Of a DNA stretch of 56,460 bases, positions 6,560 through 42,259 are shown piece by piece. Under the pieces are notes generated by a model. The model had not been told where the DNA came from. It saw nothing but the letters and a program-made list of their open reading frames with translations, and ran no database searches. The translations under genes and the position numbers were made by a program. The stretch comes from an uncultured Candidatus Saccharibacteria bacterium (GTDB lineage: Bacteria; Patescibacteriota; Minisyncoccia; Portnoybacterales; UBA2143): NCBI GenBank assembly GCA_964556655.1, contig CAZKWY010000002.1, positions 1 through 56,460 on the forward strand. Reading direction: 5' to 3'. Within the stretch, counting starts at the first letter, position 1. Each line of letters starts with the position of its first letter.

Positions 6560-7461
6560 ATGAAAAAATATTTTTTTATTTTTTTATCGTTATTTTTTGT
6601 TTTGGGGATAGCTCAAACAGCGCGCGCTGAAGAATATTATTACGATAGCATTGAAGTAGAGATAAAGGTTAATTCCGACAGCACTTTTGAAGTTTCGGAA
6701 AAGCAGACATATTTTTTAAATGGCAGTTTCGGTTATTTTTATCGAGATATTGGATTAAAAAGATTAGATCATATTTCTGACGTAATTGTTTTTGACAGCC
6801 AAGGTAGAAAGCTGGACCGGGACGAACACGATATTTTCTATAAAGGAGAGCGTCTTAATATTAAATGGGATTTTCCAAGAAGAAATTTTGATCGAGAGCT
6901 AAAATCATGGACAGTGAAATATAAAGTTCATGGAGGATTGGGATTTTATGATAAGCACGAGGAGCTTTATTGGAACGCTATTTTTGCCGACCGAGAGGCA
7001 ATAGTGGCATCAGCAAAAATAACAGTTATTTTGCCCCAAGAAACAGAAATAATTGACCAGTTGATGTTTGTCGGACCGGAAGGGGAGCAGAGGAAAGATG
7101 GAAATGGCTTGGTTTCAAAGAGTATCTGCATACTGCTGAAAGGTTCAGGCTAGGGGCAGAAACAGTAGAGACTTTTTCAAAATATTTGCCTTACGCTATA
7201 ATTTTTGGCGTAGAAAAAGAATGGGCTGATCGTTTTGCCGATCTTAATTATCAAGTTCCTAATTGGTATATTCCTGCTAATGTTCGCTATGGCGGAAGAG
7301 TTGGCGAAGGGGCTGCTTCTTTTTCCGGTATCACTTCGGGCATTTCTTCATTCTCTTCATCTGTTTCCAGCACTTTTTCCTCTTCGCCGGGTGGTTCTGG
7401 CGCTGGCGGAGGAGGGGGAGCTGGCGGTGGAAGCGGCGGAGGCGGCGGAGGAGCTGGCTAA
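6560..7461 (+). pseudogene. DUF2207-like membrane protein gene, frameshifted and internally shortened
   Basis: ORF 6560-7153 has a signal peptide plus the YYYDSIEVEIKVNSDSTFEV..GSFGYFYRDI N-domain. A second frame, open from 7057, reads KWLGFKEYLHTAERFRLGAETVETFSKYLPYAIIFGVEKEWADRF followed by a Gly-rich tail. These are the conserved C-terminal motifs of the same family. The two frames meet near 7098-7102. Confidence 0.6.
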
Positions 7462-10580: not shown

Positions 10581-10618
10581 AAAGCTAGATAGAACCATTA
10601 ATAAACCTAGCTTTTTTT
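10581..10618 (+). terminator. Possible terminator after rpoD
   Basis: AAAGCTAG, an 18-nt loop, CTAGCTTT, then a T-run. The large loop makes this weak. Confidence 0.3.
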
Positions 10619-10622
10619 GGTA

Positions 10623-12212
10623 ATGGCCAGCCAAGATTATCATAATGCTAAAAGAATAATTGTGTTTGCTGTCGAAGCCGCAGTTGTTTTTTTAATGGGC
10701 CTAGGCCTGATTTCTCGAGAGGCTAGTCTCTTTCTGGCTGCCTTAATGGCTTTTTATTTTATTTTCAGCCCTTTGCGGGATGGCATCTGGCTTTTTATCG
10801 CTTCCATCCCTTTATTTGTCGCTTTGCCCATTAGCAAGGGCTTTGACACCTTAGCTAGTTGGCGTATTTTTTCTTTAATCCTTTTGCTGGTTTTATTCTA
10901 TCGCCGTCGTCTTTTATCTTATTACTTCAGTTATTGGAAAGAGATTATTAAAGAACACTATCAGAGGCGTAGTTTTGAATGTCTGTCTATAATTTTTCTC
11001 GCTTTTGCTTTTTTTTCCTTGTTAGTGGCAGAAGATCTTTTAGCAGGAATTAAAAAAATAATTTTTTTGCTCAATGCCTTTTTTATCTACTTTATTATTA
11101 AAAAAGCAGGGGAGAAAGATCGAAGCGTTTTAAGGGAAGTGCTTAGCGGAGCTAAGACAGCTATCGCATTTGTTCTCGGCGTGGGGCTGGCCCAATTTAT
11201 TACAGTTTTTATTGTCCCCTTAAGTGTTTTTTGGAATTTTTGGGACAGTAATTTTATTCCTGTTTTTTACGGAGAAAAGCTTGGCTGGCTTTTATCTTAC
11301 AGCAATACTTGGTTTTCCTATTATCCCTATTTGCCAGCTACTTTAAGGATGTTTTCGGTTTTCCCAGACTCTCATTCTTTTGCTCTTTTTTGCGTTTTGT
11401 CCCTCCCTTTTTTGTTGTGGTTTATCTTCAGAAAAAAAAGGGGGGGCCGCAAAAAAGTTTTCTTTTTGTATTTAACTCTTCTCTTTTGCCTTTCGGCGAT
11501 TATTTTTTCCGGTTCGCGCGGCGTTTGGGTGGGTGGAATAGGAAGTTTTTTCGCTCTTTTGCTTCTCTTGTTCGCCAATTGGTCGCCTGCCCTTAAGAAA
11601 GCAACTAGCTTCTTTATTCCTTTGAAAAAGCGGGCGTGGCGGAGGCAAATGATGGCTATGGCAGGGGTAATAATCATCTTTTTTCTTCTCTTTCCTGTTG
11701 CTTCGCGCGTTCTTTTATTGTCTCAACAAGTCCAGATGGAAAGTGAACTTGATTTAGGCAAAGCTTCTTTATTTAGAAGAGCTAGAAGCATTTTTCAACT
11801 TGATGAAGCATCTATTAAAGGACGACTAGAGATCTGGCAACGAACGGCCGATTCTATTGCCATGCGTCCTCTTCTAGGAGTGGGGATAGGCAACTATCCT
11901 ATTGTCTTAAAAGAAGGAATTTCTTCTGCCGAAAGAGGCGCTTCAGCGCATAGTCTTTATTTAGACATAGCTGCTGAAATGGGAATTTTTTCTTTGCTTA
12001 TTATGTTGGCTCTTTTTTGGCAGATTTTTAAGGATGCTTGGGAGAAATTTACTAGAAGTCACCGTTCTTTTTTTAGAATTTGGACTGGTTTTTTTGTTCT
12101 TGCTTTGATATGGCTTTTAGGATATAGTGTATTTGATGTTGTTTTATTAAACGACAAGGTGCTTTTATTTTTTGCGGCCAGTCTATCAATCTTATATTTC
12201 CCTAAACGATGA
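10623..12212 (+). CDS. O-antigen ligase/polymerase-like (Wzy_C family) membrane protein
   Basis: Has 10 or more TM helices, an FSGSRGVWVG motif, and a periplasmic loop with GVGIGNY. The ATG at 10623 is preferred over the track's TTG at 10617. Confidence 0.7.
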   Translation: MASQDYHNAKRIIVFAVEAAVVFLMGLGLISREASLFLAALMAFYFIFSPLRDGIWLFIASIPLFVALPISKGFDTLASWRIFSLILLLVLFYRRRLLSYYFSYWKEIIKEHYQRRSFECLSIIFLAFAFFSLLVAEDLLAGIKKIIFLLNAFFIYFIIKKAGEKDRSVLREVLSGAKTAIAFVLGVGLAQFITVFIVPLSVFWNFWDSNFIPVFYGEKLGWLLSYSNTWFSYYPYLPATLRMFSVFPDSHSFALFCVLSLPFLLWFIFRKKRGGRKKVFFLYLTLLFCLSAIIFSGSRGVWVGGIGSFFALLLLLFANWSPALKKATSFFIPLKKRAWRRQMMAMAGVIIIFFLLFPVASRVLLLSQQVQMESELDLGKASLFRRARSIFQLDEASIKGRLEIWQRTADSIAMRPLLGVGIGNYPIVLKEGISSAERGASAHSLYLDIAAEMGIFSLLIMLALFWQIFKDAWEKFTRSHRSFFRIWTGFFVLALIWLLGYSVFDVVLLNDKVLLFFAASLSILYFPKR

Positions 12213-13258
12213 TTCCTTTAGTTTCGATCAGCTTATTAGCTTATAACGGAAAAAAATATTTGAAGGATTGTTTAAACTCGGTTTGTAGTCAGAGCTATAA
12301 AGAAATAGAATTGATTGTTATCGATAATGATTCCAGCGATGGGACAAAAGAAATAGTCAAAAAAATTTCTTTTGGCGGTCCTTTAATTAAAGTTTTTAAT
12401 CAAAAAAACCTTGGTTTTTCGGCTGGCCATAATCAGGCGATTAAAAAGGCTAAGGGAAAATATATTCTTTGTCTCAATCAGGATGTTTTTTTAGACAAAT
12501 ATTTCATCCAAAAAGCGGTGGAAACTATGGAAAAAGATGATAAAATCGCGTCGGTCCAAGGCAAGCTTTTGCGCTGGACAAACGATCTGCCGGTTTTTAG
12601 AGGATACACTGATTATCATATTTCTCATATTATTGATACTACCGGCCTGGAAATGTTAAAAAACCGTCGTATTATTAATAGGCGGCAGGGAGAAATAGAT
12701 AGCCAGGAGCAAGAGGAAGCAATAGAAGAAATTTTTGGCGCTGATGGCGCGGCTCCTCTTTATCGTCGAGAAGCGCTGGAAAGCATTAAGATATCTTTAA
12801 AAGAAACGGAGCAAGAAGAATATTTTGACGAAGATTTTTTTTGCTATAAAGAAGATGTGGATTTGGCTTGGCGTTTGCGTCTTTACGGATGGAAATCTAT
12901 TTATCAGCCTGCTGCCTTAGGCTGGCATGCTCGCACAGCAGGAGAAAGCGCAAGCAGAAAATATTTTAGTATCATTAGAGAGCGTTTAAAAATAAATCCT
13001 TTTGGCAAATATCATGCTTTTAGAAATCAAAGGTTGATGCAGGTCAAAAACGAACAAATAGGCCTTTTGGCAAGGCATTTCCCCCGGCTAGCAGTTAAAG
13101 AAATGGGTTCTTGGTTTTTCGTTCTTGTTTTTGAAAAATATACTTGGCGGGCAATAAAAGAGTTTTTTCAGCTTTTACCTCAAGCTCTTCAAAAAAGAAA
13201 GATTATTATGGCAAAAAAAATAGCTTCAACCGAAGAAATGAAACAATGGTTTAAGTAA
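12209..13258 (+). CDS. Glycosyltransferase family 2
   Basis: VSISLLAYNGKKYLKDCLNSV..ELIVIDNDSSDGT is a typical GT2 N-terminus with DxD. An ATGA overlap links it to the upstream gene. Confidence 0.8.
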   Translation: MIPLVSISLLAYNGKKYLKDCLNSVCSQSYKEIELIVIDNDSSDGTKEIVKKISFGGPLIKVFNQKNLGFSAGHNQAIKKAKGKYILCLNQDVFLDKYFIQKAVETMEKDDKIASVQGKLLRWTNDLPVFRGYTDYHISHIIDTTGLEMLKNRRIINRRQGEIDSQEQEEAIEEIFGADGAAPLYRREALESIKISLKETEQEEYFDEDFFCYKEDVDLAWRLRLYGWKSIYQPAALGWHARTAGESASRKYFSIIRERLKINPFGKYHAFRNQRLMQVKNEQIGLLARHFPRLAVKEMGSWFFVLVFEKYTWRAIKEFFQLLPQALQKRKIIMAKKIASTEEMKQWFK

Positions 13259-13259
13259 T

Positions 13260-14285
13260 ATGGAGGAACAAGTAAAGACAAAAAAGAAAAAATATTTTTG
13301 GTGGTTATTAGTAATTGTTTTTTTGGTCGGTTTTTTTGGCCTCTTTTTTTTAAAGACTGGCTTTACTATTAGCAATGTCGCTGGTTGGAGCCAGCAGGCT
13401 GGAATTCTGCCTTTTAACAAGAATTTGCCTGATTTGCCGAAAGATAATCCTGATCGCCTTAACATTCTTCTTTTGGGCATGAGAGGAACTAATGAACCTG
13501 GCGACGGAAAGCTTCTTTCCGACGCCATTATTCTTGCTTCTGTCAAGAAAAGCACCGGTCAGACTGCTTTGATTTCTTTTCCTCGCGATCTCTATGCGCG
13601 AATATGGTGTTCTGATGAGGAAAAAAAGATTAATTTTGCTTTTGCTCAAGGAGGGCTAGCATGCGCCAAAAACACGGTCTCTCTTATTAGTGGACTTTAC
13701 ATTGATCACGCTGTTAGCATTAACTTTAGCGGCCTTGTCGAGCTTGTTGATGCTATGGGAGGGATAGATATTTATCTGCCTGAACCGTTTGAGGAGAGCT
13801 TCCAGTGGGCTAAGGAGGGCTGGGAAGAAAACGATTACTGGTTTGTTAAAGAAATAGAGGGAAAAGAGAGATGGGTTTTCCATATTGCTACCGGTACTAA
13901 CCACCTAGACGGTCAAACAGTTCTTTACTATGTTCGTTCTCGCTATTCTACTAATGATTTTGACAGGATGAGAAGGCAGCAACAATTTCTTATGGCCCTT
14001 AAAGAAAAGATGCTTTCTTTAAATGTCTTGGCTAATCCGGTAAAAGTTTATAATCTTTTGGATATTTTAGGCAATAATGTCAGAACCGACATGAACGTGT
14101 CTGAAATAGGGAATATGATTATTTCATCTTCAGAATGGGAGAAAGAGAAAGTAAAAAAACTTTCTTTTGACACCAGCGCGCAGGGCTTTCTTTATCATAC
14201 TTTTATTAATGAGGAATATGTTCTTTTGCCTGTAGGCGATAATTTTAGTAAAATACAACAGGCTTGCAAAAATATTTTTGAGTAA
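13260..14285 (+). CDS. LytR-CpsA-Psr (LCP) family cell-envelope glycopolymer transferase
   Basis: N-terminal TM anchor. Also NILLLGMRG..DAIILASV..ISFPRDLY..GGIDIY and an RSRYS..DFDRMRRQQ pattern. Confidence 0.8.
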   Translation: MEEQVKTKKKKYFWWLLVIVFLVGFFGLFFLKTGFTISNVAGWSQQAGILPFNKNLPDLPKDNPDRLNILLLGMRGTNEPGDGKLLSDAIILASVKKSTGQTALISFPRDLYARIWCSDEEKKINFAFAQGGLACAKNTVSLISGLYIDHAVSINFSGLVELVDAMGGIDIYLPEPFEESFQWAKEGWEENDYWFVKEIEGKERWVFHIATGTNHLDGQTVLYYVRSRYSTNDFDRMRRQQQFLMALKEKMLSLNVLANPVKVYNLLDILGNNVRTDMNVSEIGNMIISSSEWEKEKVKKLSFDTSAQGFLYHTFINEEYVLLPVGDNFSKIQQACKNIFE

Positions 14286-14299
14286 TCTGGAATAAAAAC

Positions 14300-15118
14300 A
14301 TGCTTTCTATTATTGTTAGTCATTACAAAAGTCCTATTTTATTAAAGCTTTGCCTGCAGTCGATAAAGGAGAATGTAACTTTTTCCGATTACGAGATTAT
14401 TGTCGCTGACAGCGAAGCTCAGTCCAATACCAGAGAAATGCTGGAAGATTATTTTAAGACATGGCTTTCAGAGCAAGCAAAAGAAGGACAAATAAGATAC
14501 CTTCCTTTTGCTGAAAATCTTGGTTATGCTAAGATAGTTAATAGAGCCATTAAAAGGGCGCGTGGAGAATATTTTCTGGTTATTAACGCCGATATCATTG
14601 TTCTCAAGCATGCGACCAAAAGACTGATGGACTATCTTAAAGAAAATCCCGATGTTGGCGTTGTTGCTCCCAGTCTTCTTACTTTTAGCAACCAAGGACA
14701 AATTTCCGCTTTTCATCATCCAAACCTCAAAGCTTTTTTGGCTAGAAGGACTGTCTTGGGCAAAACAGAATGGGGAAAAAGAGTGTTGACGCAGTTCCAA
14801 ATACCAATTAGCGACAAAGAAGCCCAAGAAGTAGACTGGGTCCAAGGATCAGCCATGATGGTAAAAAAAGACGCTGTTAATAAGGTTGGTCTTTTGGACG
14901 AAAGATTTTTTATGTATCTTGAGGATGCTGATTGGTGTCGTCGTTTTTGGAAAAATGATTATCGGGTAGTTTATCTGCCTTTCGCCCAGATGTCGCATTA
15001 TTATCATAGAAAAAGCAAAAGATGGGGACAGCTGTTAGATCCCTTTTTAAACAAGGCAACCCGCTGGCATATTAGAAGTGCCTTTAAGTACTTTTGGAAG
15101 TGGCGCGGGACTGCTTAA
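14300..15118 (+). CDS. Glycosyltransferase family 2
   Basis: LSIIVSHYKSP..YEIIVADSEAQ plus the later YLEDADWCRR motif typical of GT2 enzymes. Confidence 0.8.
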   Translation: MLSIIVSHYKSPILLKLCLQSIKENVTFSDYEIIVADSEAQSNTREMLEDYFKTWLSEQAKEGQIRYLPFAENLGYAKIVNRAIKRARGEYFLVINADIIVLKHATKRLMDYLKENPDVGVVAPSLLTFSNQGQISAFHHPNLKAFLARRTVLGKTEWGKRVLTQFQIPISDKEAQEVDWVQGSAMMVKKDAVNKVGLLDERFFMYLEDADWCRRFWKNDYRVVYLPFAQMSHYYHRKSKRWGQLLDPFLNKATRWHIRSAFKYFWKWRGTA

Positions 15119-15137: not shown

Positions 15138-16331
15138 ATGAAGAAAAAAATTTTAATTCCTGTTTTTATTGCTTTAGTGGGGATAGTTTTTGGTTCAGGT
15201 TATTTTATCGGCCAGAATGCTCGTCCTGCTGTTGAAAAGATTACCAGTTTAGAGAATAAAGAATTAGATAAGCCGCAAGCAGTTGATTTTAGCTCTTTTT
15301 GGAATGCTTGGCATCTTGTTGAACAAGAATATGTCGATAGAGATGAGCTTGATTACGAAAAAATGGTCTACGGATCAATTAGCGGATTAGTCAATTCTTT
15401 AGGTGATCCTTATTCTGTTTTTATGGAGCCAAAGGAAAGCAAGAAATTTATGGATGATATGAGCGGCAGTTTTGAGGGCATTGGCGCTGAAGTAGGAATA
15501 CGTCAAGGAGTGCTGACTATTATTTCGCCTCTCGAAGGCAATCCAGCCCAAGAGGCAGGTATTAAGTCAGGCGATAAAATTATTAAGGTAGACGATACGT
15601 TGACGACAGATTTAAGTTTAGACGAAGCGGTCAGCTTGATTAGAGGACCACGAGGCACTGAAGTGAGGCTTCTTATTATGAGAGAAAACTGGGAGGAAGC
15701 AAGAGAGATTAAAGTCGTCAGAGACACAATTAAAATTCCTATTATTGAATGGTCATATCGCGAAAATAATATTGCCTATGTCCAGCTTTATCATTTTACA
15801 GAGAATTCTTCGGCGGAATTTGCTCGCATTGCTAACCAGATAGCCAGCAAAGACGCTCAAGGCATAGTCCTGGATTTAAGAGACAACCCCGGAGGATATC
15901 TAAACGCTGCCGTTAACATCGCTAGCTGGTATTTGCCAAAGGGCGATCCGGTAGTATTGGAAGATTTTGGCAATGATGATAAAAAAGCGTATAAAAGCCA
16001 AGGATATATGAAATTAGCTGACGTTCCTACCGTTATTCTAATTAATCAGGGATCAGCTTCAGCCTCAGAGATTGTTGCCGGCGCTCTTAGGGATTTGGAT
16101 AATGTTTGGATAGTGGGAGAAAGAAGCTTTGGCAAGGGATCAGTCCAGCAACTAGAAGAAATGCTTGACGGGTCCAGCATCAAGTTAACTGTGGCTAAAT
16201 GGCTGACTCCTTCGGGAGTAAGCATTTCAGAAGAGGGGATTGAGCCTGATATCGAAGCAAAAATAACCGAAGAGGATATTGATAATATGCGTGATCCTCA
16301 ATTGGACAAGGCGATAGAAGTCTTAGAATAG
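15138..16331 (+). CDS. Carboxyl-terminal processing protease (peptidase S41) with PDZ domain
   Basis: GIGAEVG..SPLEGNPAQEAGIKSGDKIIKVD (PDZ), LDLRDNPGG, and GSASASEIVAGAL. Confidence 0.85.
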   Translation: MKKKILIPVFIALVGIVFGSGYFIGQNARPAVEKITSLENKELDKPQAVDFSSFWNAWHLVEQEYVDRDELDYEKMVYGSISGLVNSLGDPYSVFMEPKESKKFMDDMSGSFEGIGAEVGIRQGVLTIISPLEGNPAQEAGIKSGDKIIKVDDTLTTDLSLDEAVSLIRGPRGTEVRLLIMRENWEEAREIKVVRDTIKIPIIEWSYRENNIAYVQLYHFTENSSAEFARIANQIASKDAQGIVLDLRDNPGGYLNAAVNIASWYLPKGDPVVLEDFGNDDKKAYKSQGYMKLADVPTVILINQGSASASEIVAGALRDLDNVWIVGERSFGKGSVQQLEEMLDGSSIKLTVAKWLTPSGVSISEEGIEPDIEAKITEEDIDNMRDPQLDKAIEVLE

Positions 16332-28291: not shown

Positions 28292-28360
28292 CAGGACTGT
28301 CCTTCAAGGACAGTCCTGCGAAGGAGTGTCAAAAAAGGACTGTCCTTTAAGGACAGTCCT
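28292..28360. repeat. Two tandem copies of a nested palindrome (AGGACTGTCCTT-N-AAGGACAGTCCT)
   Basis: The copies at 28293-28317 and 28336-28360 are perfect 12-bp inverted repeats with a 1-nt centre. Each arm contains the 9-bp palindrome GGAC(T/A)GTCC. The copies are 43 bp apart, just 3' of the tRNA. Confidence 0.85.
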
Positions 28361-35813: not shown

Positions 35814-35836
35814 TTTTGCTTATTCTACTAAAAATT

Positions 35837-37078
35837 ATGGAAAATGTCAATAGTAAAAAACGATTTTTCCCCTTTTATTTCCTTCTTTTTTTGATTTTAG
35901 TAAGACCGTCTTTAGATATTATCGGCGAATGGGAAATAAGCTTATCTAAAAACTTTCCTTCTTTTAATATTAATATTATTCTTGGTTTTTTTGTTTTCTT
36001 TTTTAGCGCCTTTTTTCTGTTAAAAAATATCAAAAAAACTGTCCGAACTCCCCTTTTCTGGCCCATAGCCACTTTTTTGACTGTTTTATCAGCAAGTATC
36101 TTTTATTCCATGGATCCTACGGCAAGCTTGCGAGAGATCATCCGTCTTGCTACTATTTTCTTTCTTTATCTTCTTGCTTATCAGGTAATAAGTAATAAAA
36201 AAGATTTTTACCTTCTGGTTAAAGTCGTTCTTTTAAGCTATCTGCTCCCTTCTTTGGCGGCTCTTTTCCAATATTTCTTTGGCCTTGGCTTATCTGACCA
36301 ATTCGGTGGTTTTCAAAGAGTTTATGGAACCTTTGCTCACCCTAATCCTTTTGCCTTTTACAGCTTTCTTATTGTTTCGCTTTCTTTGGCTCTTGGCCTA
36401 AAAAAGATTAGCCAAGAGCCAAAAAATAACCAGGGAAACAACCTTTTATTTATCGTTCTTATTTTTGTCTTTTCTTTGTTTGTCCTTTTTGTCACTCATA
36501 CTAGAAGTGCTTTGGCCTGCTTAGCTGTTTTAATTTTTGTTCTAGGACTTTTTAAATACAGAAAAATCTTTCTTTTTGGCTTTCTTTTATTTCTGGGAGT
36601 TTATCTTTTTTCTGAAGTTTTTCAGCAAAGGATATGGGAGCTTATCAGCTTAGATCCCTATGGTTCTGTTGTTTGGCGTTTCCGCCTATGGGAAGATATG
36701 CTCCCCCTCTTTTTGTGGCAGCCCTTTATCGGCTACGGCTTAGAAACTTTTACTAAATTGGCTGAATTTTATCGCGGTTTTAAATGGGGCAGTCTTGAGG
36801 CTCATAACGATTATTTAAAGATTTTGATTGAAAACGGCATTCTTGGTCTTATCTCTTATCTGTGGCTTATGCTCGCCGTTCTCTTTTTTCTCTTTAAAAA
36901 ATTTACTCAATCTCAAAAAGAACAAAAAACAATGGCCTTGGTTATCTTCACTGTTTTTCTTTCTCTCTTTATCGCTGCTTCTTTTGATAATCTTCTTCAT
37001 GCTACCGCCCTCCAATGGAATCTCTGGATAATCATCGCCTCTTGGCTAAAAACCACCCACCGAGGACTGTCATTCTAG
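35837..37078 (+). CDS. O-antigen ligase/polymerase-like (Wzy_C family) membrane protein
   Basis: Many TM helices, THTRSALA, and an IGYGLETF loop. The ATG at 35837 is preferred over the track's TTG at 35816. The last codons and the stop lie inside a palindromic repeat. Confidence 0.7.
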   Translation: MENVNSKKRFFPFYFLLFLILVRPSLDIIGEWEISLSKNFPSFNINIILGFFVFFFSAFFLLKNIKKTVRTPLFWPIATFLTVLSASIFYSMDPTASLREIIRLATIFFLYLLAYQVISNKKDFYLLVKVVLLSYLLPSLAALFQYFFGLGLSDQFGGFQRVYGTFAHPNPFAFYSFLIVSLSLALGLKKISQEPKNNQGNNLLFIVLIFVFSLFVLFVTHTRSALACLAVLIFVLGLFKYRKIFLFGFLLFLGVYLFSEVFQQRIWELISLDPYGSVVWRFRLWEDMLPLFLWQPFIGYGLETFTKLAEFYRGFKWGSLEAHNDYLKILIENGILGLISYLWLMLAVLFFLFKKFTQSQKEQKTMALVIFTVFLSLFIAASFDNLLHATALQWNLWIIIASWLKTTHRGLSF

Positions 37079-37129
37079 GACAGTCCTAAAATTACAGTCC
37101 TTCAAGGACTGTCCTAAAAGGACTGTCCT
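37063..37129. repeat. Cluster of GGAC(T/A)GTCC nested palindromes (same family as 28292-28360)
   Basis: 37063-37087 reads AGGACTGTCattctaGGACAGTCCT. 37094-37112 reads ACAGTCCTTcAAGGACTGT. An extra AGGACTGTCCT unit lies at 37119-37129. Confidence 0.85.
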
Positions 37130-37137
37130 AAAAGAAG

Positions 37138-37175
37138 AAGCCCTGTCGCTTTCCGCAACAGGGCTTATTTTTTTT
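37138..37175. terminator. Bidirectional rho-independent terminator
   Basis: AAGCCCTGT-cgctttccgca-ACAGGGCTT followed by ATTTTTTTT on the plus strand and CTTCTTCTTTT on the minus strand. It lies between convergent genes. Confidence 0.7.
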
Positions 37176-37725
37176 ATGGCCGAGTGGAGTAGTCCCTCGG
37201 CACCTTGATTATTTTTTCTTTCTTTTCATTCACCAGGACTTCGTATCCTGGCTTATTGTCGAGGTCATATCGGCAATAGGGGCTTTTTTGATCTATCCAA
37301 AGCCAATTGCCGGAAATTTTGTCTCTCCCCCAGACTCTGACCCAATGCCATCCGTTCCCTTTCTCGGAAAGAGAACAGATGCCCTTTAGCCTACCGCCCT
37401 CCATGGAGGTAGGTATGGAATAGTCTTCCCTGGGGAGGGAAAACCATTTCTTCCCATCCGTCCAGAAGACACTGGCATAGAGTTGCCAGTGAGGATTACT
37501 TATGTTTGACCCCTCCTTTTCTAGCTGCCATTTAATAATAGGGACTTGAAAGACAACCTTGCCTTCCATGACCTCTATCATGAACATCTCGTGTACAAGG
37601 CTGCTTTCATAGTCGCCTTTTTCTGGGACCCCTTCTGGGATCCCAGAACCGGAACTAAATGCTTGAATGGGGATAAACATCCCCACAAAAGCAACAATTG
37701 CCGTCCACAAAACTACTTTTTTCAT
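37174..37725 (-). CDS. Hypothetical secreted Trp-rich protein (183 aa)
   Basis: Signal peptide MKKVVLWTAIVAFVGMFIPIQAFS. A strong SD (AAGAGGAGG) lies 6 nt before the ATG. No family motif recognised. Confidence 0.6.
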   Translation of the reverse strand: MKKVVLWTAIVAFVGMFIPIQAFSSGSGIPEGVPEKGDYESSLVHEMFMIEVMEGKVVFQVPIIKWQLEKEGSNISNPHWQLYASVFWTDGKKWFSLPREDYSIPTSMEGGRLKGICSLSEKGNGWHWVRVWGRDKISGNWLWIDQKSPYCRYDLDNKPGYEVLVNEKKEKIIKVPRDYSTRP

Positions 37726-37797
37726 TTTTTTCCTCCTCTTTGTTTTCTTCGTTGTTTAGTTGTTTTGTGTTTTTTCGCTCGAACTCGAATATATATT

Positions 37798-37836
37798 AGG
37801 ACCGTCCTTTAAGAGCAATACCTAAAGGACAGTCCT
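37798..37836. repeat. GGAC(N)GTCC palindrome pair (same family), long-loop version
   Basis: AGGACCGTCCTTTA-agagcaatacc-TAAAGGACAGTCCT has 14-bp arms with one mismatch. It sits 73-111 bp upstream of the start at 37725. Confidence 0.75.
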
Positions 37837-37971
37837 TGAATTTCAGGCAAGTCTTTTTTGTTTTTCCACCATGTTGGCGTAGAGCTGACATTTTGTCAGC
37901 TCTATTATTAGTCGGACTATTTTAGTCCTAAGACAGAAAACATTTTGTCCACTGTCCGCTAACAAAAAAGA

Positions 37972-39687
37972 CTATTGAGCTACTAAGTCTGACGGTTTTG
38001 CTTTCTCAATTTGAGAAGCGCGCCAAGCTTTGACTATGCCGCCAATGTTTAGATAGCCCGAAAGCCAATGCCATTGATCTCCGTCTCCGCCTAAATTTTC
38101 TTTGTAATTAAGGAAGGAAACAGAGGCAATGTCTTTATTTCTCCAAGACAGAGTCATCCTCGGTCCAAATTGGACGTATTCGGGATCATCTCTGCCCATT
38201 TCCCTAATAAAACTGAAATTAAATCCAGGCGTTATTAGGGTGTTTGTGTTTTGGCTTGGCTTAAAATCATAAAGATGCTGGATAACAGCGATTTCCCAAT
38301 TACTGTTATCCGCAGGATCTGGTTTTAACGGCCAGCCGTCCCATTCATGAAGATGGTAGTCGTTTTCCGGCCAGCGAGCCTCCAGATTAAATTCTGTTTT
38401 AGGCAGGATTTTTTTTCCTGCATCCCGCCGCGGATAGATATTGAGGTGAGCTGATTGGTAGTTGAGCCATCCCAGTTTGTCTTTTTGCCGGCTCCCGTAA
38501 AGAGAAATTCCTCCCTTGTTATGAAGGCTTCCTATCGCCCCAATGTCCAAGTCAGCATCCCAATGAGAACCGAAAAGCTTAACCGAAGGGCCTATGTTCC
38601 ATTGATCCCACTGGTATTTGTATCCTTCATCATGGCCTTCGCCCATAGACCTGAAGCCAAATACGCCGAGACAAGCTCTGATTAAAGGACGTTCGCTTAT
38701 CTTATAGGGTCCCAGAGGACGGAATCTCGCCTTTCCCCAAAAATAATATCCGTCAGCATCATAATTAACACTTTCATAGTTGCCACCGCCTAGATAAAAG
38801 TCAAAGCCGCACTCGTCCAAAGCTGCTTTAGGCGCCTGAGGTTCCTTAAAAACCGGAATGGGCGGATATCCTTTCTCTGGCTCTTTAAAAACCGGGATAG
38901 GCGGATACTTCGGGGATGGCTTTTTAATAAGCGGCTCTCCAAGCGGCTCTCCCACTGATATATTATTGCAGAAGAGGATATGGACAAAGTCTGGCGCGTC
39001 TTCTGCTTGGTATAAGCGCGCCTTAAGCGGACCAGTTTTGGACAAATCCGCAATTCGGTTAAGGATTAATTTCGTTTCTCCGTGACTGGTATAGCTCATT
39101 TCTTTTACTTCCCAGCCGTCTTTTATTTCTACTTCTTTAAATTCGCCAAATTCCATTTTTCGGCGAATTTCCCTTTGCTGAAAACGGGAAAGCTGGTGAA
39201 ATGACGGAAGATAGCCAACAGCTTCTAAGGGAGAAGCTTTTGTCGGCGCTGTGCCCGGAACCCATCTTTTTTTCTTACTTTCCGAAAGGTCAGGAACCAA
39301 TACCCTTTGTCCAGGATAGATAAGAAAAGGTTTTCTTATCTTGTTGATCCTGGCAATAGCTTGCCATTTCAATCCATACTTTCGGCCGATGGCCGAAAGG
39401 CATTCCCCTTTCTTAACGAGGTGGATCTTTGCTAACGCTTCCTTCGAATCCTTCGAAACAATTTCTGTAAGGGTTAATTTTTGTCCAGGATAGATAAGAA
39501 AAGGTTTTCTTATCTTGTTGATCCTGGCAATAGCTTGCCATTTCAATCCATACTTTCGGCCGATGGCCGAAAGGCATTCCCCTTTCTTAACGAGGTGGAT
39601 CTTTGCCGATCCTGCTGCTGAGTCTACTAAAATAGCAGAAATCAGCAGCAGGCAAACAATTGCTGCTAATTCTGCTTTTTTTATCAT
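37972..39687 (-). CDS. Secreted protein with two LysM domains and a large unassigned aromatic/Gly-rich C-terminal domain (571 aa)
   Basis: Has a signal-like N-terminus. Two identical LysM units read KIHLVKKGECLSAIGRKYGLKWQAIARINKIRKPFLIYPGQ. A YPPIPVFKEP mini-repeat follows, then ~290 aa that I cannot assign. Confidence 0.75.
   Translation of the reverse strand: MIKKAELAAIVCLLLISAILVDSAAGSAKIHLVKKGECLSAIGRKYGLKWQAIARINKIRKPFLIYPGQKLTLTEIVSKDSKEALAKIHLVKKGECLSAIGRKYGLKWQAIARINKIRKPFLIYPGQRVLVPDLSESKKKRWVPGTAPTKASPLEAVGYLPSFHQLSRFQQREIRRKMEFGEFKEVEIKDGWEVKEMSYTSHGETKLILNRIADLSKTGPLKARLYQAEDAPDFVHILFCNNISVGEPLGEPLIKKPSPKYPPIPVFKEPEKGYPPIPVFKEPQAPKAALDECGFDFYLGGGNYESVNYDADGYYFWGKARFRPLGPYKISERPLIRACLGVFGFRSMGEGHDEGYKYQWDQWNIGPSVKLFGSHWDADLDIGAIGSLHNKGGISLYGSRQKDKLGWLNYQSAHLNIYPRRDAGKKILPKTEFNLEARWPENDYHLHEWDGWPLKPDPADNSNWEIAVIQHLYDFKPSQNTNTLITPGFNFSFIREMGRDDPEYVQFGPRMTLSWRNKDIASVSFLNYKENLGGDGDQWHWLSGYLNIGGIVKAWRASQIEKAKPSDLVAQ
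39307..39606. repeat. Perfect 126-bp direct duplication (period 174 bp) encoding the LysM unit
   Basis: 39307-39432 and 39481-39606 are identical base for base in my reading and are separated by 48 bp. Confidence 0.9.
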
Positions 39688-40424
39688 ATTTCCTTTAACC
39701 TTCCTTTCGTTTTTTCCACTCCCATCAGAGCAGAATCCTTCTTTAAAGCGCTCCTAGCGCTTTTTCTGAGATCATCAATTTTTCCATAAGTTGCTCCTTT
39801 AAAGGGAGAAACATACCTCCCCTTCCAGTTCAACTTAGGAAAATATCTGTATCTAAGGCCGTTAACATCAAACTCTACGAACTTCTTTTTTGTTAGTCTG
39901 GACTTTATCGCCAAGCCTAATGGAAAAGAGATCAAGAGTATGCCTGCTATAATGGCCATCGTTAAAGGGGCTGGAGATATGGAAGAATTTGTTTTATTGA
40001 GATCATCTCTCATCTTCCATATTTCTTTTTTAATTTCGTTGGCTTCCTCTTCGGTCTTCCGTTCGTTTTTTCTGGCTCCCTCTTTGACCGCTTGACTAAC
40101 CTCAAATGAGGAAGTCATTTCGTTTTCTCGGACCTCCCGCTTTATCTCCTCTTTAGCCTTTCTTAGTTCTTCTTTTACTCTCTCAGCTACTCTCTCAGCC
40201 GTCCCTTGAGGTATTTGATACCTTAAGATCTGTCCCGGAAAAATCCTGGTTCCTGTTGAATTCCACTCAATAAGATTGCGTCTGTCTATCTTTAAGGCAA
40301 ACGCAATTTCTGAAAGAGTATCTCCTTTCTTGACCTGATACTCTTTCCACTCTTCGGCGTAGCCGTAGCCGAAAACAGCCACCACCATCAATACTGCCAC
40401 CAATGCTACTATCTTTCCTTTCAT
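39684..40424 (-). CDS. Single-pass membrane protein with extracellular LysM domain
   Basis: Start is set at the ATG at 40424, with GAGGAGG 5 nt upstream. It has a signal peptide, the LysM unit YQVKKGDTLSEIAFALKIDRRNLIEWN..IFPGQIL, a charged coiled region, a TM helix (MAIIAGILLISFPLGLAI) and a basic tail. Its stop overlaps the start of the next gene. Confidence 0.7.
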   Translation of the reverse strand: MKGKIVALVAVLMVVAVFGYGYAEEWKEYQVKKGDTLSEIAFALKIDRRNLIEWNSTGTRIFPGQILRYQIPQGTAERVAERVKEELRKAKEEIKREVRENEMTSSFEVSQAVKEGARKNERKTEEEANEIKKEIWKMRDDLNKTNSSISPAPLTMAIIAGILLISFPLGLAIKSRLTKKKFVEFDVNGLRYRYFPKLNWKGRYVSPFKGATYGKIDDLRKSARSALKKDSALMGVEKTKGRLKEI

Positions 40425-40470
40425 TTTGCCCTCCTCTTTCTTTCCATCTTGGAATTCCCCCCCCATTACT

Positions 40471-41442
40471 TTAACGGGGAAGTTGTAGTTCTCTTATCCT
40501 TCTATCTCTTTCTTCTAGAAGGTCCTGATAGATACGACAAACTTGGCGAAGCAACGGCGCCATTTGATGGCGAATTGTTTCTGCTCGAGCATAAGATCCG
40601 CTCCAAGAATCATCTATCCCTGCGACCACTGCATCGCTGACAATGCTGGCAACGCCTAACGCTAAAACGCCTGCATTCCAAAAAGGGAAAATCATCATCA
40701 CTTTAGTGTTTTTGAGCCACCTTTGAGAACTGTTAAAGCCGGGCATTTCTACTGCCTCTGTTTTAAACTTGTCCAAGGGCAAATAACTGGAACGAACCTG
40801 AGCGCCTACTTTGTAATGATGGCGCATTGTTTGGCTAGTTCTTTCCTTAAATTCGTCCCATTCAGGAGAGCCGACCGTTATCTCACTAACGCTAGTTAAG
40901 TCATTAGGCGCTAGAAGATCTTTTCCTCGGAAGTAATTCCGATAAAAAATCTCTAGTTCTGAAAGGGTCATTCCATGCTCCTGAAAGATCTGCTTTTGGT
41001 AATCTTCCTCCTTATCAAATCGCCTAGGATCATAAGCTACCTCAGCTCCTGAAAGCTGGTAAAGCCATCCTCCGTCTGCTGACGAATAGACGATTCTAGC
41101 TTTCGCAAGATCGTCTAAGCCGCAAAGGAAAACAACTCTTAGATAAAAGCTTCCCCAGTAATCAATGCCGGCTAGATAGGCATAGCCGGAAAATTTTTCT
41201 CCATTTCCTAAAGCTAGCGCCGGCCAGACTCCTCCATTAGCCACTACCTCAATCCATAATCCGGGGTCAAAAAAGGCAACAAAGGTCGTTATGGTTTTAA
41301 CCTTGTCCTTTTCTGCCTCTACTGGATGAGGGACAGAAATCTTTTCTACTGGGTCGGAAAATGCATGCTTAGGAAGATAATTTCCCGATGCGCAACCAAT
41401 GCCGCTTAATGCCAACAAAAACACTGCTAAGATATGTCTCAT
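40471..41442 (-). CDS. Putative lipoprotein (hypothetical)
   Basis: Start is set at the ATG at 41442, with AGGAGG 5 nt upstream. It has a lipobox-like sequence LLALSGIGC and a late hydrophobic segment (IFPFWNAGVLALGVASIV). No family motif recognised. Confidence 0.55.
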   Translation of the reverse strand: MRHILAVFLLALSGIGCASGNYLPKHAFSDPVEKISVPHPVEAEKDKVKTITTFVAFFDPGLWIEVVANGGVWPALALGNGEKFSGYAYLAGIDYWGSFYLRVVFLCGLDDLAKARIVYSSADGGWLYQLSGAEVAYDPRRFDKEEDYQKQIFQEHGMTLSELEIFYRNYFRGKDLLAPNDLTSVSEITVGSPEWDEFKERTSQTMRHHYKVGAQVRSSYLPLDKFKTEAVEMPGFNSSQRWLKNTKVMMIFPFWNAGVLALGVASIVSDAVVAGIDDSWSGSYARAETIRHQMAPLLRQVCRIYQDLLEERDRRIRELQLPR

Positions 41443-41524
41443 CAACACCTCCTAATCCAATTTGGATTTTTTGCCAATCTTTGGCATTTTCTATTAAGTT
41501 TTCAAAGATCTTTTTGAAAACCTC

Positions 41525-41559
41525 CTTTCTAGGCAAAAGCTAAGCTTTTGCCTAGAAAG
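41525..41559 (-). terminator. Perfect 17-bp-arm hairpin at the 3' end of the Wzz-like gene
   Basis: CTTTCTAGGCAAAAGCT-a-AGCTTTTGCCTAGAAAG. The stop codon (41552-41554) lies inside the 3' arm. The minus strand continues GGAGGTTTTC. Confidence 0.5.
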
Positions 41560-42175
41560 CAAGTTTTTGGCGGTCTTTTAATAAAACGATCGTAGCGCCG
41601 GCCAAAAAACCAAGAATTCCGCCGCTGATGGCAGCCAACCACAAATTAAGAGTAAATGGCTTTTCGCCTGTTCTCGGCTGGTCTAAAATCCTTACTGTCA
41701 CATTATTGTTTCCGCCATGATAAAAAGAATGATAGTCTTTAATTCCTTGGGTTACTGCTTCGTTAATATTGACAGCTCTTTTTCTCTCCGGATCAAAAAC
41801 CGCTATTTCCATAATTCCTAGATCGCGCACTTCATTGATCTCAATCATCTTTTCCCATTGCTCTCTTCTTTCTTTTACAGAATCAGAAAAATCGTTGATG
41901 TTTAATTCCGGAGAAATAGTTAAAGCTTTATTGAAAAAATCATCAGAATAAACACTTTCTTTTAAGATACGCGTTAAATACTGGGCTGACTTAGAGATAG
42001 TATAGATATCCTGGCCAGCAGTTTGTTTCTGAATGACTACTAGCCGCGAATCAACTCGATAGTCCGGCTCTTGAATCACTACCAAATCAAAAGCTAAAAC
42101 CGCTCCTAAAACTACGAGCCAGAAAACAAGCCATTTATGTAAAACTATTGCTTTCCCCCATTCTTTTAAAGTCAT
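41552..42175 (-). CDS. Wzz-like polysaccharide chain-length determinant (tentative)
   Basis: Bitopic layout with TM helices at both ends (WLVFWLVVLGAVLAF and LWLAAISGGILGFLAGATIVLL) around a ~150-aa loop beginning QEPDYRVDSRLVV. The start is moved to the ATG at 42175. Confidence 0.45.
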   Translation of the reverse strand: MTLKEWGKAIVLHKWLVFWLVVLGAVLAFDLVVIQEPDYRVDSRLVVIQKQTAGQDIYTISKSAQYLTRILKESVYSDDFFNKALTISPELNINDFSDSVKERREQWEKMIEINEVRDLGIMEIAVFDPERKRAVNINEAVTQGIKDYHSFYHGGNNNVTVRILDQPRTGEKPFTLNLWLAAISGGILGFLAGATIVLLKDRQKLAF

Positions 42176-42259
42176 ATTAATGTTAATAAAATAAAAATGC
42201 CTATATCTCAAGGCAACTATATATTAATACAATTTAATAGATAAAGTCAAGAGCAAAAA

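Follow-up and report, generated by a model that had tools for sequence, protein, structure and literature searches.

A conserved operon of secreted LysM and β-barrel proteins with strong Shine-Dalgarno sites at an envelope-glycan locus of Patescibacteria

Four neighbouring minus-strand genes, named M1 to M4 here, lie within an envelope-glycan locus of an uncultured Candidatus Saccharibacteria bacterium (GTDB lineage Bacteria; Patescibacteriota; Minisyncoccia; Portnoybacterales; UBA2143), and their translation start signals and base composition differ from those of the genes around them. The whole stretch of DNA analyzed, referred to as the window, comprised 56,460 nucleotides (assembly GCA_964556655.1, contig CAZKWY010000002.1, positions 1 to 56,460). 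An earlier sequence-only reading had proposed that the four genes were either horizontally acquired, or specially regulated and highly translated. The question raised by this locus was which of the two descriptions applies, and what the encoded proteins may do at the cell surface. Our results showed that the operon is vertically inherited, lineage-restricted and tightly linked to the Wzy_C/Wzz glycan locus, and that M1-M4 are an uncharacterized system of partly recognizable parts, including LysM-anchored surface proteins, type-V-like barrels and surface-protein/glycan loci. In the literature, no description was found of this operon, nor of gene sets led by Shine-Dalgarno (SD) sites in bacteria of the candidate phyla radiation (CPR).

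Translation signals and base composition of the operon

A total of 51 genes were called in the window, of which four constitute the module (M1-M4) and 47 served as the comparison set. The interval between the Wzy_C gene and the Wzz-like gene is called the slot. The features of the operon and its two boundaries, with the evidence used for each, were as follows.

40471-41442, minus strand: M1, lipoprotein of 323 aa (family alignment, AlphaFold2 (AF2) model, hydropathy, SD)
39684-40424, minus strand: M2, LysM bitopic membrane protein of 246 aa (Pfam, alignment of 8 orthologues, hydropathy, SD)
37972-39687, minus strand: M3, secreted protein of 571 aa with two LysM domains (Pfam, family alignment, AF2, Foldseek)
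37174-37725, minus strand: M4, small Trp-rich secreted protein of 183 aa (orthologue alignment, GC content at third codon positions (GC3), SD)
41443-41560, minus strand: operon leader (sequence, terminator scan, RNAalifold)
37726-37971, minus strand: M3-M4 spacer (sequence, palindrome and terminator scans)
37063-37166, minus strand: operon end with terminator-like hairpin and palindrome cluster (palindrome and terminator scans)
35816-37078, plus strand: first slot boundary, convergent Wzy_C membrane protein (Pfam PF04932, E=1e-18)
41552-42211, minus strand: second slot boundary, Wzz-like protein (Pfam Wzz E=4e-4 and GNVR E=1e-3, both below the gathering score)

The four co-directional open reading frames (ORFs) of the sequence-only reading were all present in the ORF listing at these coordinates. 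Its reassigned M1 start (ATG at 41442) agreed with the position of the SD site and with the N-terminal alignment of homologues, and so did the M2 start (ATG at 40424). A signal peptide or lipobox was found in all four proteins and LysM in two of them (M2 and M3). The Wzy_C gene belongs to the O-antigen ligase/polymerase/O-oligosaccharyltransferase family, and radical-SAM, glycosyltransferase family 4 (GT4), DUF4012 and GT4 genes lie beyond it. The Wzz-like protein has two transmembrane segments, and its gene, which has its own terminator, is located downstream of grpE-hsp20-dnaK.

To estimate the strength of the SD sites, the energy of pairing between the anti-SD and the 18 nt preceding each start was calculated. 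The duplex energies of M1, M2, M3 and M4 were -14.0, -12.5, -9.0 and -12.0 kcal/mol, respectively, while the 47 other window genes had a mean of -1.06 ± 2.15 kcal/mol. The strongest value in this set was -6.0 kcal/mol, so the contrast between module and housekeeping starts, noticed earlier by eye, held against every other gene of the window. The GGAGG site was located at 41448-41452 for M1 (5 nt before the ATG), at 40430-40434 for M2 and at 37732-37736 for M4 (6 nt before the ATG). The stop of M2 and the start of M3 overlap as ATGA (39684-39687), and the two genes are translationally coupled. The genes lacking an SD included dnaK, grpE, hsp20, dnaJ and those for ribosomal proteins L9, L21 and L27 (L21 identified by Pfam on its orthologue, L9 and L27 read from their N-terminal sequences), and A/T-rich leaders were found upstream of the starts outside the module. 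The organism thus appears to initiate translation essentially without SD pairing, like Bacteroidia and some CPR bacteria. In every relative, the module genes carried a GGAGG-type SD at functional spacing, and their neighbours had no SD at the true starts. Several GGAGG repeats were also seen on the plus strand (7408-7447) within an ORF at 7186-7461 (91 aa, GC 0.51, ordinary GC3 of 0.32), which is probably the Gly-rich tail of the neighbouring protein or a miscalled frame.

By analogy, rpsU of Bacteroidia would be the closest precedent for the SD sites of the module, since in both cases a near-SD-less genome keeps a very small conserved gene set with strong SDs (PMC7797042, PMC9976891, PMC13000453). 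The ribosomes of Bacteroidia are SD-blind, and the strong SD retained by rpsU serves its translation by ribosomes that lack bS21 (PMC7797042, PMC9976891). Differently, the SD-led set in the window is a secreted-protein operon instead of rpsU and shows a GC shift in addition. A similar mechanism here would hinge on the 3' end of the 16S rRNA, from which the anti-SD has been lost in some CPR bacteria (PMC9297842).

The GC content of M1-M4 was 0.42-0.47, compared with a mean of 0.393 in the other genes and 0.35-0.37 in the adjacent glycan genes. Their GC3 was 0.39-0.54 versus 0.353 ± 0.033 in the other genes (Mann-Whitney p = 0.001), with z-scores of 5.5 (M4), 2.1 (M3), 2.35 (M2) and 1.24 (M1), and the GC3 of M4 (0.54) was the highest in the window. 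The tetranucleotide distance of the block 37174-41442 to the whole window was 0.257, against 0.144 ± 0.027 for sliding windows, which made it the most deviant stretch of the window. The composition analysis recommended in the sequence-only reading, carried out within the window, bore out a GC-richer block unlike the average, in direction and significance (GC, GC3, tetranucleotide), but the gap was smaller than the hand counts had implied. The atypical composition by which genomic islands are recognized was present (tetranucleotide distance, GC3 z of 1.2-5.5). The second-largest tetranucleotide deviation after the module was found at 1-1000, where the GC was 0.25 against a window mean of 0.39.

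The association was then evaluated in a pooled set of 601 unique ORFs from 94 loci, with a cut-off of dG <= -8.5 for the SD class. SD sites and signal peptides were associated (Fisher odds ratio 5.4, p=1e-16). The 111 ORFs with both features had a mean GC3 excess of +0.086 over the locus median, while that of every other class was about 0. Genes with both SD and signal peptide made up 89 of the 118 genes between Wzy_C and Wzz and 22 of the 483 elsewhere, and about half of these 22 were recognizable module genes or immediate slot neighbours at loci where the flank label was missing.

Vertical descent of the operon and variability of its slot

The order GrpE-HSP20-DnaK-Wzz-M1-M2-M3-M4-Wzy_C (opposite strand)-radical SAM-GT4-DUF4012-GT4-x-DnaJ was shared by the related loci L001-L010, L014 and many of L015-L094, and six GTDB species representatives (metagenome-assembled genomes) had this gene order. 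The segment Wzz-M1-M2-M3-M4-Wzy_C was found at the same place in about 20 diverged Patescibacteria lineages. Scanning metagenomes with an alignment of Wzy_C yielded 80 further loci. Wzy_C adjoined the slot in about 80 loci, and every metagenomic locus with both flanks visible had 1-5 minus-strand genes between Wzy_C and Wzz. A barrel-only homologue of M3 (L011, E=2e-20) also adjoined a Wzy_C gene, and Wzz stood directly beside Wzy_C in the rearranged L019. The earlier idea that the module separates ligase-like and Wzz-like genes normally lying together was not sustained, because in related loci with both flanks the interval was occupied by such genes. In L002 (4592-6441), dnaK was split into ORFs of 228 and 388 aa by a frameshift or an assembly error.

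The content of the slot varied between lineages as follows.

Close clade: M4-M3-M2-M1
L022: M4-M3-M1
L026: M4 alone
L037/L093: M4 and two M2-like genes
L017, L050, L056, L060: barrel and other lipoproteins
L021, L030, L034, L052, L069/72, L079/83, L080/82: unrelated secreted/lipoprotein families

In the more distant relatives, the other secreted/lipoprotein families in the slot had the same SD and GC signals. Judged from these sequences, the variable content would fit a surface or host-interface role.

The divergence of the barrel domain was compared with that of Wzy_C in 22 non-redundant loci (213 pairs). The pairwise identities were correlated (Pearson 0.75, Spearman 0.64), and in no pair did the barrel identity exceed the Wzy_C identity by more than 13 points. 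The genes adjoining the slot all had housekeeping or glycan Pfam assignments, with no integrase or transposase among them, and the sole tRNA of the window, tRNA-Lys, which was also the only Rfam match in the window at the gathering threshold, was about 9 kb away from the module. Of the module proteins, only M3 was compared, by its barrel domain, with 50,697 phage and 72,556 plasmid records; these contained no homologue, and phage or plasmid cargo was rejected for this domain. A recent island was ruled out by the fixed position in about 20 lineages together with the co-divergence of barrel and Wzy_C (r=0.75). Recent horizontal acquisition, one half of the original proposal, was thus not supported, in view of the same position in relatives, the co-divergence, the lack of mobility genes near the slot and the lack of barrel homologues in the phage and plasmid records. 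The synteny comparison suggested in the sequence-only reading told against import, since the same four genes stood at the same place in relatives; a strong SD was present in none of the 47 other window genes. The other half of the proposal, a specially regulated or translated cell-surface module, was supported by the signal peptides or lipoboxes of all four proteins and by the SD sites and GC3 excess, which the module genes kept in genomes from 28 to 44% GC.

The GC3 of the slot depended on that of the flanks with a slope well below 1 (slot GC3 = 0.53 x flank GC3 + 0.24, r=0.69, 30 independent loci). It exceeded the flank GC3 in 27 of these 30 loci, with a median excess of +0.118 compared with +0.021 for dnaK, and the genomes richest in AT showed the greatest excess. 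The shift was equally present at GC1, at GC2, in NNY codons (towards C and away from T) and in NNR codons (towards G and away from A). Classical codon-usage selection, which affects C-ending codons only, was ruled out by the shift in both NNY and NNR codons, and amino-acid composition alone was ruled out as the cause of the GC excess by the shift of GC3 and of NNY/NNR third positions. The module proteins share only 40-50% identity, a divergence at which synonymous sites free of constraint would have reached equilibrium, and we infer that selection may keep the GC of the module high, via mRNA stability or structure or via decoding. The most extreme values were found in AT-rich surroundings. The barrel-only gene of L011 had a GC of 0.59, a GC3 of 0.78 and an SD, while its neighbouring Wzy_C gene had a GC of 0.28, and a slot protein of 511 aa in L078 had a GC3 of 0.79 between AT-rich flanks. 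As a separate observation, secreted/lipoprotein genes at L011 7779-8618 (minus), L011 2031-3222 (plus) and L078 from about 4468 onward had a GC of 0.59-0.69 and a GC3 of 0.78-0.84, each with an SD; their neighbours had a GC of 0.28-0.33 and no SD, and one of these GC-extreme genes was outside the Wzy_C slot.

These data also bear on an ancient acquisition from an SD-using, GC-richer and possibly diderm donor, in which SD sites and GC shift would be functionless residue and the slot a refilled recombination hot spot. The offset, being largest in the AT-richest genomes with a slope of 0.53, looks like a selective floor and not like decay. Atypical composition combined with SD sites is the classical signature of foreign DNA, and the extreme GC3 of L011 and L078 in AT-rich flanks would agree with it, but synonymous sites should have ameliorated at 40-50% protein identity. 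A distant barrel homologue (L013) lies on a contig of 51% GC where SD sites are common, the barrel fold of M3 described below is typical of diderms, and the slot content turns over between lineages; on the other hand, within the M1-M4 clade the barrel co-diverged with Wzy_C, the SD was at functional spacing in every orthologue, and no mobility genes, tRNA/att flanks or phage/plasmid homologues of the barrel were found. Taken together, ancient transfer was considered quite unlikely.

The flanking regulatory elements were conserved as well. The leader contained the intrinsic-terminator hairpin of the Wzz-like gene (41525-41559) with its U run, a -35-like TTGAAA (41500-41505) and small palindromes or hairpins, namely TGCCAAAGATTGGCA at 41472-41486 and ATCCAAATTGGAT at 41455-41467. 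This layout was common to L001, L002, L003, L005, L006 and L008. Downstream of the Wzz terminator, the relatives had a -35-like TTGA[AC]A, one or two CCAA-N3-TTGG palindromes or hairpins with covariation, and then the SD. RNAalifold predicted 23 pairs in the leader, 10 of them with compensatory changes, comprising the terminator stem and the CCAA..TTGG hairpin. The palindrome-dense leader described in the sequence-only reading (41443-41560) was therefore real and also conserved in relatives. In L001, L003, L005, L006 and L008, the Wzz terminator stem (41521-41559 in the window) had the form CCUCC...GGAGG, in which an anti-SD-like arm is paired with an SD-like arm; in the window copy the 5' arm is altered and a free AAAGGAGG is left. 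This stem is positioned just upstream of the promoter-like box of the operon.

The M3-M4 spacer contained a hairpin formed by two palindrome copies (37798-37836), an A-rich leader and the SD of M4. On the 3' side of M4, a terminator-like hairpin (37138-37166) was followed by a cluster of AGGAC[AT]GTCCT (37063-37129) overlapping the 3' end of Wzy_C. With its own leader, strong hairpins and terminator, the module can be regarded as a separate and specifically controlled transcription unit. The palindrome AGGAC[AT]GTCCT had 21 matches in the window at <=1 mismatch versus 0.3 expected, with clusters at 28293-28360, 37063-37129 and 37798-37836, i.e. beside tRNA-Lys and on both sides of M4; the repeat family, thought to bound the module on one side, was thus found to bracket M4. 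In relatives it occurred at L003 7674-7732, L008 10511-10521, L024 9254-9264 and L042 896-953, 5541-5551 and 7457-7514, in intergenic positions, mostly at gene ends, and long hairpins arise where two copies are paired. The palindrome seems to be a clade-wide repetitive extragenic palindrome (REP)-like or terminator element.

Domain structure of the module proteins and the β-barrel of M3

Based on the Pfam scan, which covered 19 of the 51 window genes, LysM was the only family matched by M1-M4. Searches against PHROGs and NCBIfam returned essentially LysM-containing models only, the remaining matches of M1, M2 and M4 being marginal (non-LysM matches with E of 6e-4 to 0.035, or scores of tens of bits where the cut-offs lie in the hundreds). 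An anti-phage defence system was ruled out for M1-M4, as PADLOC gave no family for any of the four proteins. The LysM domains of the sequence-only reading, one in M2 and two in M3, all scored above the gathering threshold. Its statement that no other motif could be named agreed with Pfam, PHROGs, NCBIfam and PADLOC, but not with the structural result for the C-terminus of M3; in the search for characterized families, structure comparison accounted for the barrel of M3 and not for M1.

M3 is composed of a signal peptide, LysM1 (39469-39597), LysM2 (39292-39423), a middle α/β domain (38953-39270) of about 110 aa with an invariant Cys240, a Pro-rich linker (38821-38937), a 12-14-stranded β-barrel (38047-38805) and a C-terminal helix. 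The two LysM copies matched Pfam with E=6e-24 and 84.1 bits (cut-off 20.9). The linker (aa 251-289) is a disordered PVPVF repeat of the FPPVPVF type with a predicted local distance difference test (pLDDT) score below 50. The AF2 model, built on a 21-sequence alignment, had a mean pLDDT of 82, and the barrel (aa 295-547) was formed by 12-14 long antiparallel strands with 10-residue block means mostly about 90 or above (range 77-97). Foldseek against the Protein Data Bank (PDB) matched the C-terminus with the autotransporter β-domains of Hbp, EspP, BrkA, NalP and AIDA-I (TMt 0.45-0.60, probability 1.0). The best matches of the barrel were 3aeh, 2qom, 3qq2 and 1uyo (TMt 0.52-0.60), with intimin 4e1s, FadL and OmpG as further ones, and the LysM pair was matched with the Thermus thermophilus endopeptidase 4uz2. 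At the sequence level, the barrel profile had no match in the PDB. According to this model, the C-terminus of M3 is predicted to be an outer-membrane-type β-barrel, which is unexpected in a lineage regarded as single-membraned.

The strands alternate between hydrophobic and polar faces, with Asp377/379/381, His414, Asn416, Glu432 and Asn434 invariant on the polar face. Because of the invariant Asp, His, Asn, Arg and Glu residues, the polar face looks like a lumen, and the residue pattern is that of a putative membrane barrel with a conserved polar lumen, in a predicted orientation.

The C-terminal part of M3 had 21 homologues in a 5.8-billion-protein index, all unnamed. In a set of 1.84 billion representatives, the barrel-only profile matched 226 clusters (80 at E<=1e-30), with the barrel nearly always at the C-terminus. 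Among 102 distant members, LysM was found in 31, GH113 in 6, weak Pfam Autotransporter matches (PF03797, best E=2e-4) in 3, OMP_b-brl in 1 and KdgM in 1, while M3 of the window had no match to PF03797 at E<=0.1. In P0106, P0107, P0110, P0133 and P0163 (L095-L097), an N-terminal glycoside hydrolase of family GH113 replaces LysM before the barrel, an enzyme-plus-barrel layout that resembles autotransporters. In the window, M3 also shows a LysM duplication: two in-frame copies of 127 nt (39306-39432 and 39480-39606, minus strand) are 100% identical and 174 nt apart. None of the 20 other aligned family members has more than one LysM; as the second LysM is restricted to M3 of the window and the copies are identical, the duplication is very recent or maintained by gene conversion.

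Compared with classical autotransporters (type Va), M3 has a C-terminal barrel of about the same size and of the 12-stranded fold in its model, for which these proteins were the best Foldseek matches, and the wider family shows variable N-terminal modules (LysM, GH113) before a constant barrel. Differently, M3 has no PF03797 domain, its linker is a disordered Pro-rich repeat and not an α-helix running through the barrel, a terminal helix takes the place of the aromatic β-signal, and the CPR bacterium has no outer membrane or BAM in evidence among the Pfam-scanned window genes. Intimin/invasin (type Ve), with 4e1s among the matches, is the only well-known family joining an N-terminal LysM to a 12-stranded barrel. 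However, the intimin passenger of Ig-like domains is C-terminal to the barrel, where M3 has only a helix of about 25 aa, and M3 has the middle domain of about 110 aa and the linker between LysM and barrel. OmpA, OmpM and SlpA also combine a wall-binding domain, a flexible or extended hinge and a membrane β-barrel in one polypeptide (PMC10628300, PMC9388160). Unlike OmpA and OmpM, M3 uses LysM and has no Pfam match to OmpA_C or SLH, its domain order is reversed relative to OmpA, and its lineage is regarded as monoderm, so the resemblance is architectural only.

M1 consists of a signal peptide, a lipobox (Gly16-Cys17), an α/β ectodomain (aa about 30-232), a hydrophobic segment (aa 250-276) and, from alignment and hydropathy, a conserved charged C-terminal helix (aa 280-320). 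The lipobox, as expected of a bacterial lipoprotein, was invariant in all 17 family members, which were the only ones in the 5.8-billion-protein index, all unnamed or "hypothetical" and from Patescibacteria. In the AF2 model (pLDDT 74, predicted TM-score (pTM) 0.72), the α/β domain was confidently modelled, and Foldseek found no structural relative at E<0.09 in the PDB nor at E<0.07 in BFVD. A Wza/OPX export lipoprotein was ruled out for M1 (no Poly_export/SLBB Pfam match, no Foldseek match at E<0.09), and GfcABCD-type capsule accessory proteins were ruled out by the lack of a Pfam or fold match.

M2 has a signal peptide, a LysM (aa 29-68; PF01476, E=6.5e-8, 32.9 bits versus a cut-off of 20.9), a variable charged coiled-coil stalk, a transmembrane helix (aa 155-173) and a tail of about 70 aa, which is predicted to be cytoplasmic and was the most conserved part among 8 orthologues; the orthologue in L003 has no LysM. 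M4 contains 5.5% Trp and had no word-sharing relative in the 5.8-billion-protein index. Its orthologues, taken from syntenic loci at the same position, were 26-45% identical, with P62, W88, D90, W94, Y102, W132, Y161 and P176 invariant in the alignment. A lipobox Cys was present in the orthologues of 4 of 8 lineages and absent from the window copy. From its sequence, M4 is a small secreted or lipid-anchored protein without a recognizable family.

A possible wall-anchored surface complex and its alternatives

Besides the operon, the window encodes an LytR-CpsA-Psr (LCP) wall-glycopolymer ligase, FtsW, a MurG-like protein (identified from its N-terminal sequence), a second Wzy_C protein and family 2 glycosyltransferases (GT2). 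The genes around the second Wzy_C gene form a second envelope-glycan cluster (10617-15118), directly followed by a protease gene.

10617-12212: second Wzy_C protein
12209-13258: GT2
13260-14285: LytR-CpsA-Psr ligase
14300-15118: GT2
15138-16331: S41/PDZ protease, directly after the cluster

LCP enzymes are typical of single-membrane walls, and no outer-membrane machinery (BAM, Lpt, Lol, Tol) was found among the 19 of 51 window genes scanned with Pfam. CPR bacteria are treated as single-membraned (PMC11809585, PMC8871954, bioRxiv 10.64898/2026.03.03.709456), so a lipid layer outside the wall would most likely be the membrane of a partner cell.

Our preferred explanation, which we hold tentatively and as quite possibly wrong, is a surface complex anchored to the wall, with a barrel that acts in a lipid layer beyond the wall; this layer would most plausibly be the membrane of a partner cell. 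The LysM domains would fix M2 and M3 to the cell's own peptidoglycan, and the Pro-rich linker would take the barrel through and past the wall. There the barrel may sit in a lipid layer, most likely the partner (host) membrane, as a contact anchor or a pore, while M1 and M2 would tie the assembly to the cytoplasmic membrane. The neighbouring Wzy_C/Wzz/GT machinery may decorate the complex or work beside it. The SD sites and GC shift would then be selected expression signals, for very high or condition-specific translation and for mRNA stability, and not scars of transfer. The host or prey cell wall as a target, as first suggested for the module, is possible. The descriptive part of this account is much firmer than the membrane assignment.

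Several points weigh against this explanation. Since dnaK and the ribosomal-protein genes have no SD, the need for one does not evidently follow from high expression alone. Some slots contain no barrel (L026, L037), so the role of the slot is broader than the barrel. The barrel face pointing outward was assigned from residue conservation, and the barrel ends with a helix of about 25 aa after the last strand, without a C-terminal aromatic β-signal. To our knowledge no barrel insertion machinery is known in CPR bacteria, and spontaneous insertion of the modelled barrel into a foreign membrane would be an unproven step. The data cover 56 kb of the genome and, for the related loci, at most 10 kb on either side. 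Additionally, the anti-SD is missing from about half of the Parcubacteria 16S rRNAs (PMC9297842), and if the lineage lacked it, the SD sites could not work as assumed.

A more specific version of the wall-anchored complex would be a dedicated translational regime, in which the lineage-variable secreted genes kept in the fixed slot by a broad clade of Patescibacteria, with SD-dependent initiation and GC-shifted codons, switch on a host-contact apparatus built on a LysM-tethered barrel that a single-membraned episymbiont places in the host outer membrane, as an anchor or nutrient pore. Such a regime may involve a ribosome subpopulation with exposed anti-SD or condition-dependent initiation. As a whole, this version appears improbable.

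The proximity of secreted-protein genes to a Wzy_C gene also raises the alternative that the slot genes encode abundant S-layer-like, wall-anchored glycoproteins, with Wzy_C as an O-oligosaccharyltransferase (O-OTase) or ligase. The glycan from the GT4, radical-SAM and DUF4012 genes would be put on or beside the slot proteins, Wzz would set the chain length, the barrel would be a lattice or anchor module instead of a pore, and the strong SD and stabilizing GC-richer mRNA would serve extreme expression. Known S-layer genes sgsE and sgtA are close to surface-layer glycosylation (slg) clusters, and the O-OTases of these clusters, WsaB and WsfB, contain a Wzy_C domain (PMC2943079). The same arrangement, a surface-protein gene adjoining a Wzy_C-domain transferase and glycosyltransferases, was found in about 80 loci here, and lineage-variable surface proteins are a further likeness to these clusters (sgsE/wsaB, PMC2943079). 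The slot content was variable yet always secreted proteins or lipoproteins beside Wzy_C, LysM gives a wall anchor, and the operon is equipped with a promoter-like leader of its own and with strong terminators. However, no SLH domain, other known S-layer domain or S-layer fold was found, Wzz-like and radical-SAM proteins are present instead of a Wzm/Wzt ABC transporter, and no role in a monoderm S-layer is known for a 12-14-stranded barrel of the outer-membrane type. The GC shift was not restricted to NNC codons as in classical translational selection, and dnaK and ribosomal-protein genes have no SD. This alternative, which is partly compatible with the preferred explanation, is possible and rather doubtful.

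The barrel itself could also point to an outer lipid layer of the clade so far unrecognized, with M3 as an OmpA/OmpM-like peptidoglycan tether and porin in which LysM replaces OmpA_C/SLH, M1 and M4 as lipoproteins of that layer and M2 as the inner-membrane partner; with Wzz, a trans-envelope glycan-export route would be conceivable. The LCP enzyme of the window, typical of monoderm walls, and the lack of BAM, Lpt, Lol and Tol among the scanned genes argue against such a layer, as do the missing terminal β-signal of the barrel and the dissimilarity of M1 to Wza/OPX. Wall-binding domain, Pro-rich hinge and β-barrel follow the logic of OmpA/OmpM (OmpM: PMC10628300), two lipoproteins are encoded alongside the barrel, diderms place outer-membrane export components beside a Wzz-like co-polymerase, and variable N-terminal domains (LysM, GH113, none) precede a constant C-terminal barrel as in type V secretion. 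The CPR cells examined so far were single-membraned (PMC11809585, bioRxiv 10.64898/2026.03.03.709456), and we regard an outer layer as unlikely.

If the partner is a diderm host, it could further be supposed that the genes are written for the expression machinery of the host, after transfer of DNA or RNA from the episymbiont. SD sites, GC-richer codons, Sec/lipobox signals and a BAM-type barrel would all be normal in a Gram-negative host. Nevertheless, neither transfer signals nor an oriT or border repeats were seen, and the operon has a fixed chromosomal position among housekeeping and glycan genes with vertical co-divergence. The -35-like box in its conserved leader is of the ordinary kind, anchoring by LysM would be sensible on the exposed wall of the symbiont itself, and bacteria-bacteria symbioses offer no precedent. 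This supposition is extremely improbable.

How CPR/Patescibacteria build their surface and contact their hosts is largely unknown, and most of their surface proteins are unannotated. The interval between Wzy_C and Wzz provides a conserved and easily recognized address for locating lineage-specific surface proteins in metagenomes. A family of outer-membrane-type barrels in a supposedly single-membraned group bears on the diderm/monoderm debate and on host attachment. A small gene set can retain SD sites and a GC excess for very long inside SD-less, AT-rich genomes; since these signals were long kept in vertically inherited genes, a foreign-looking composition need not indicate transfer. Gene-specific translational control in CPR bacteria thus becomes directly testable, as it did with rpsU in Bacteroidia.

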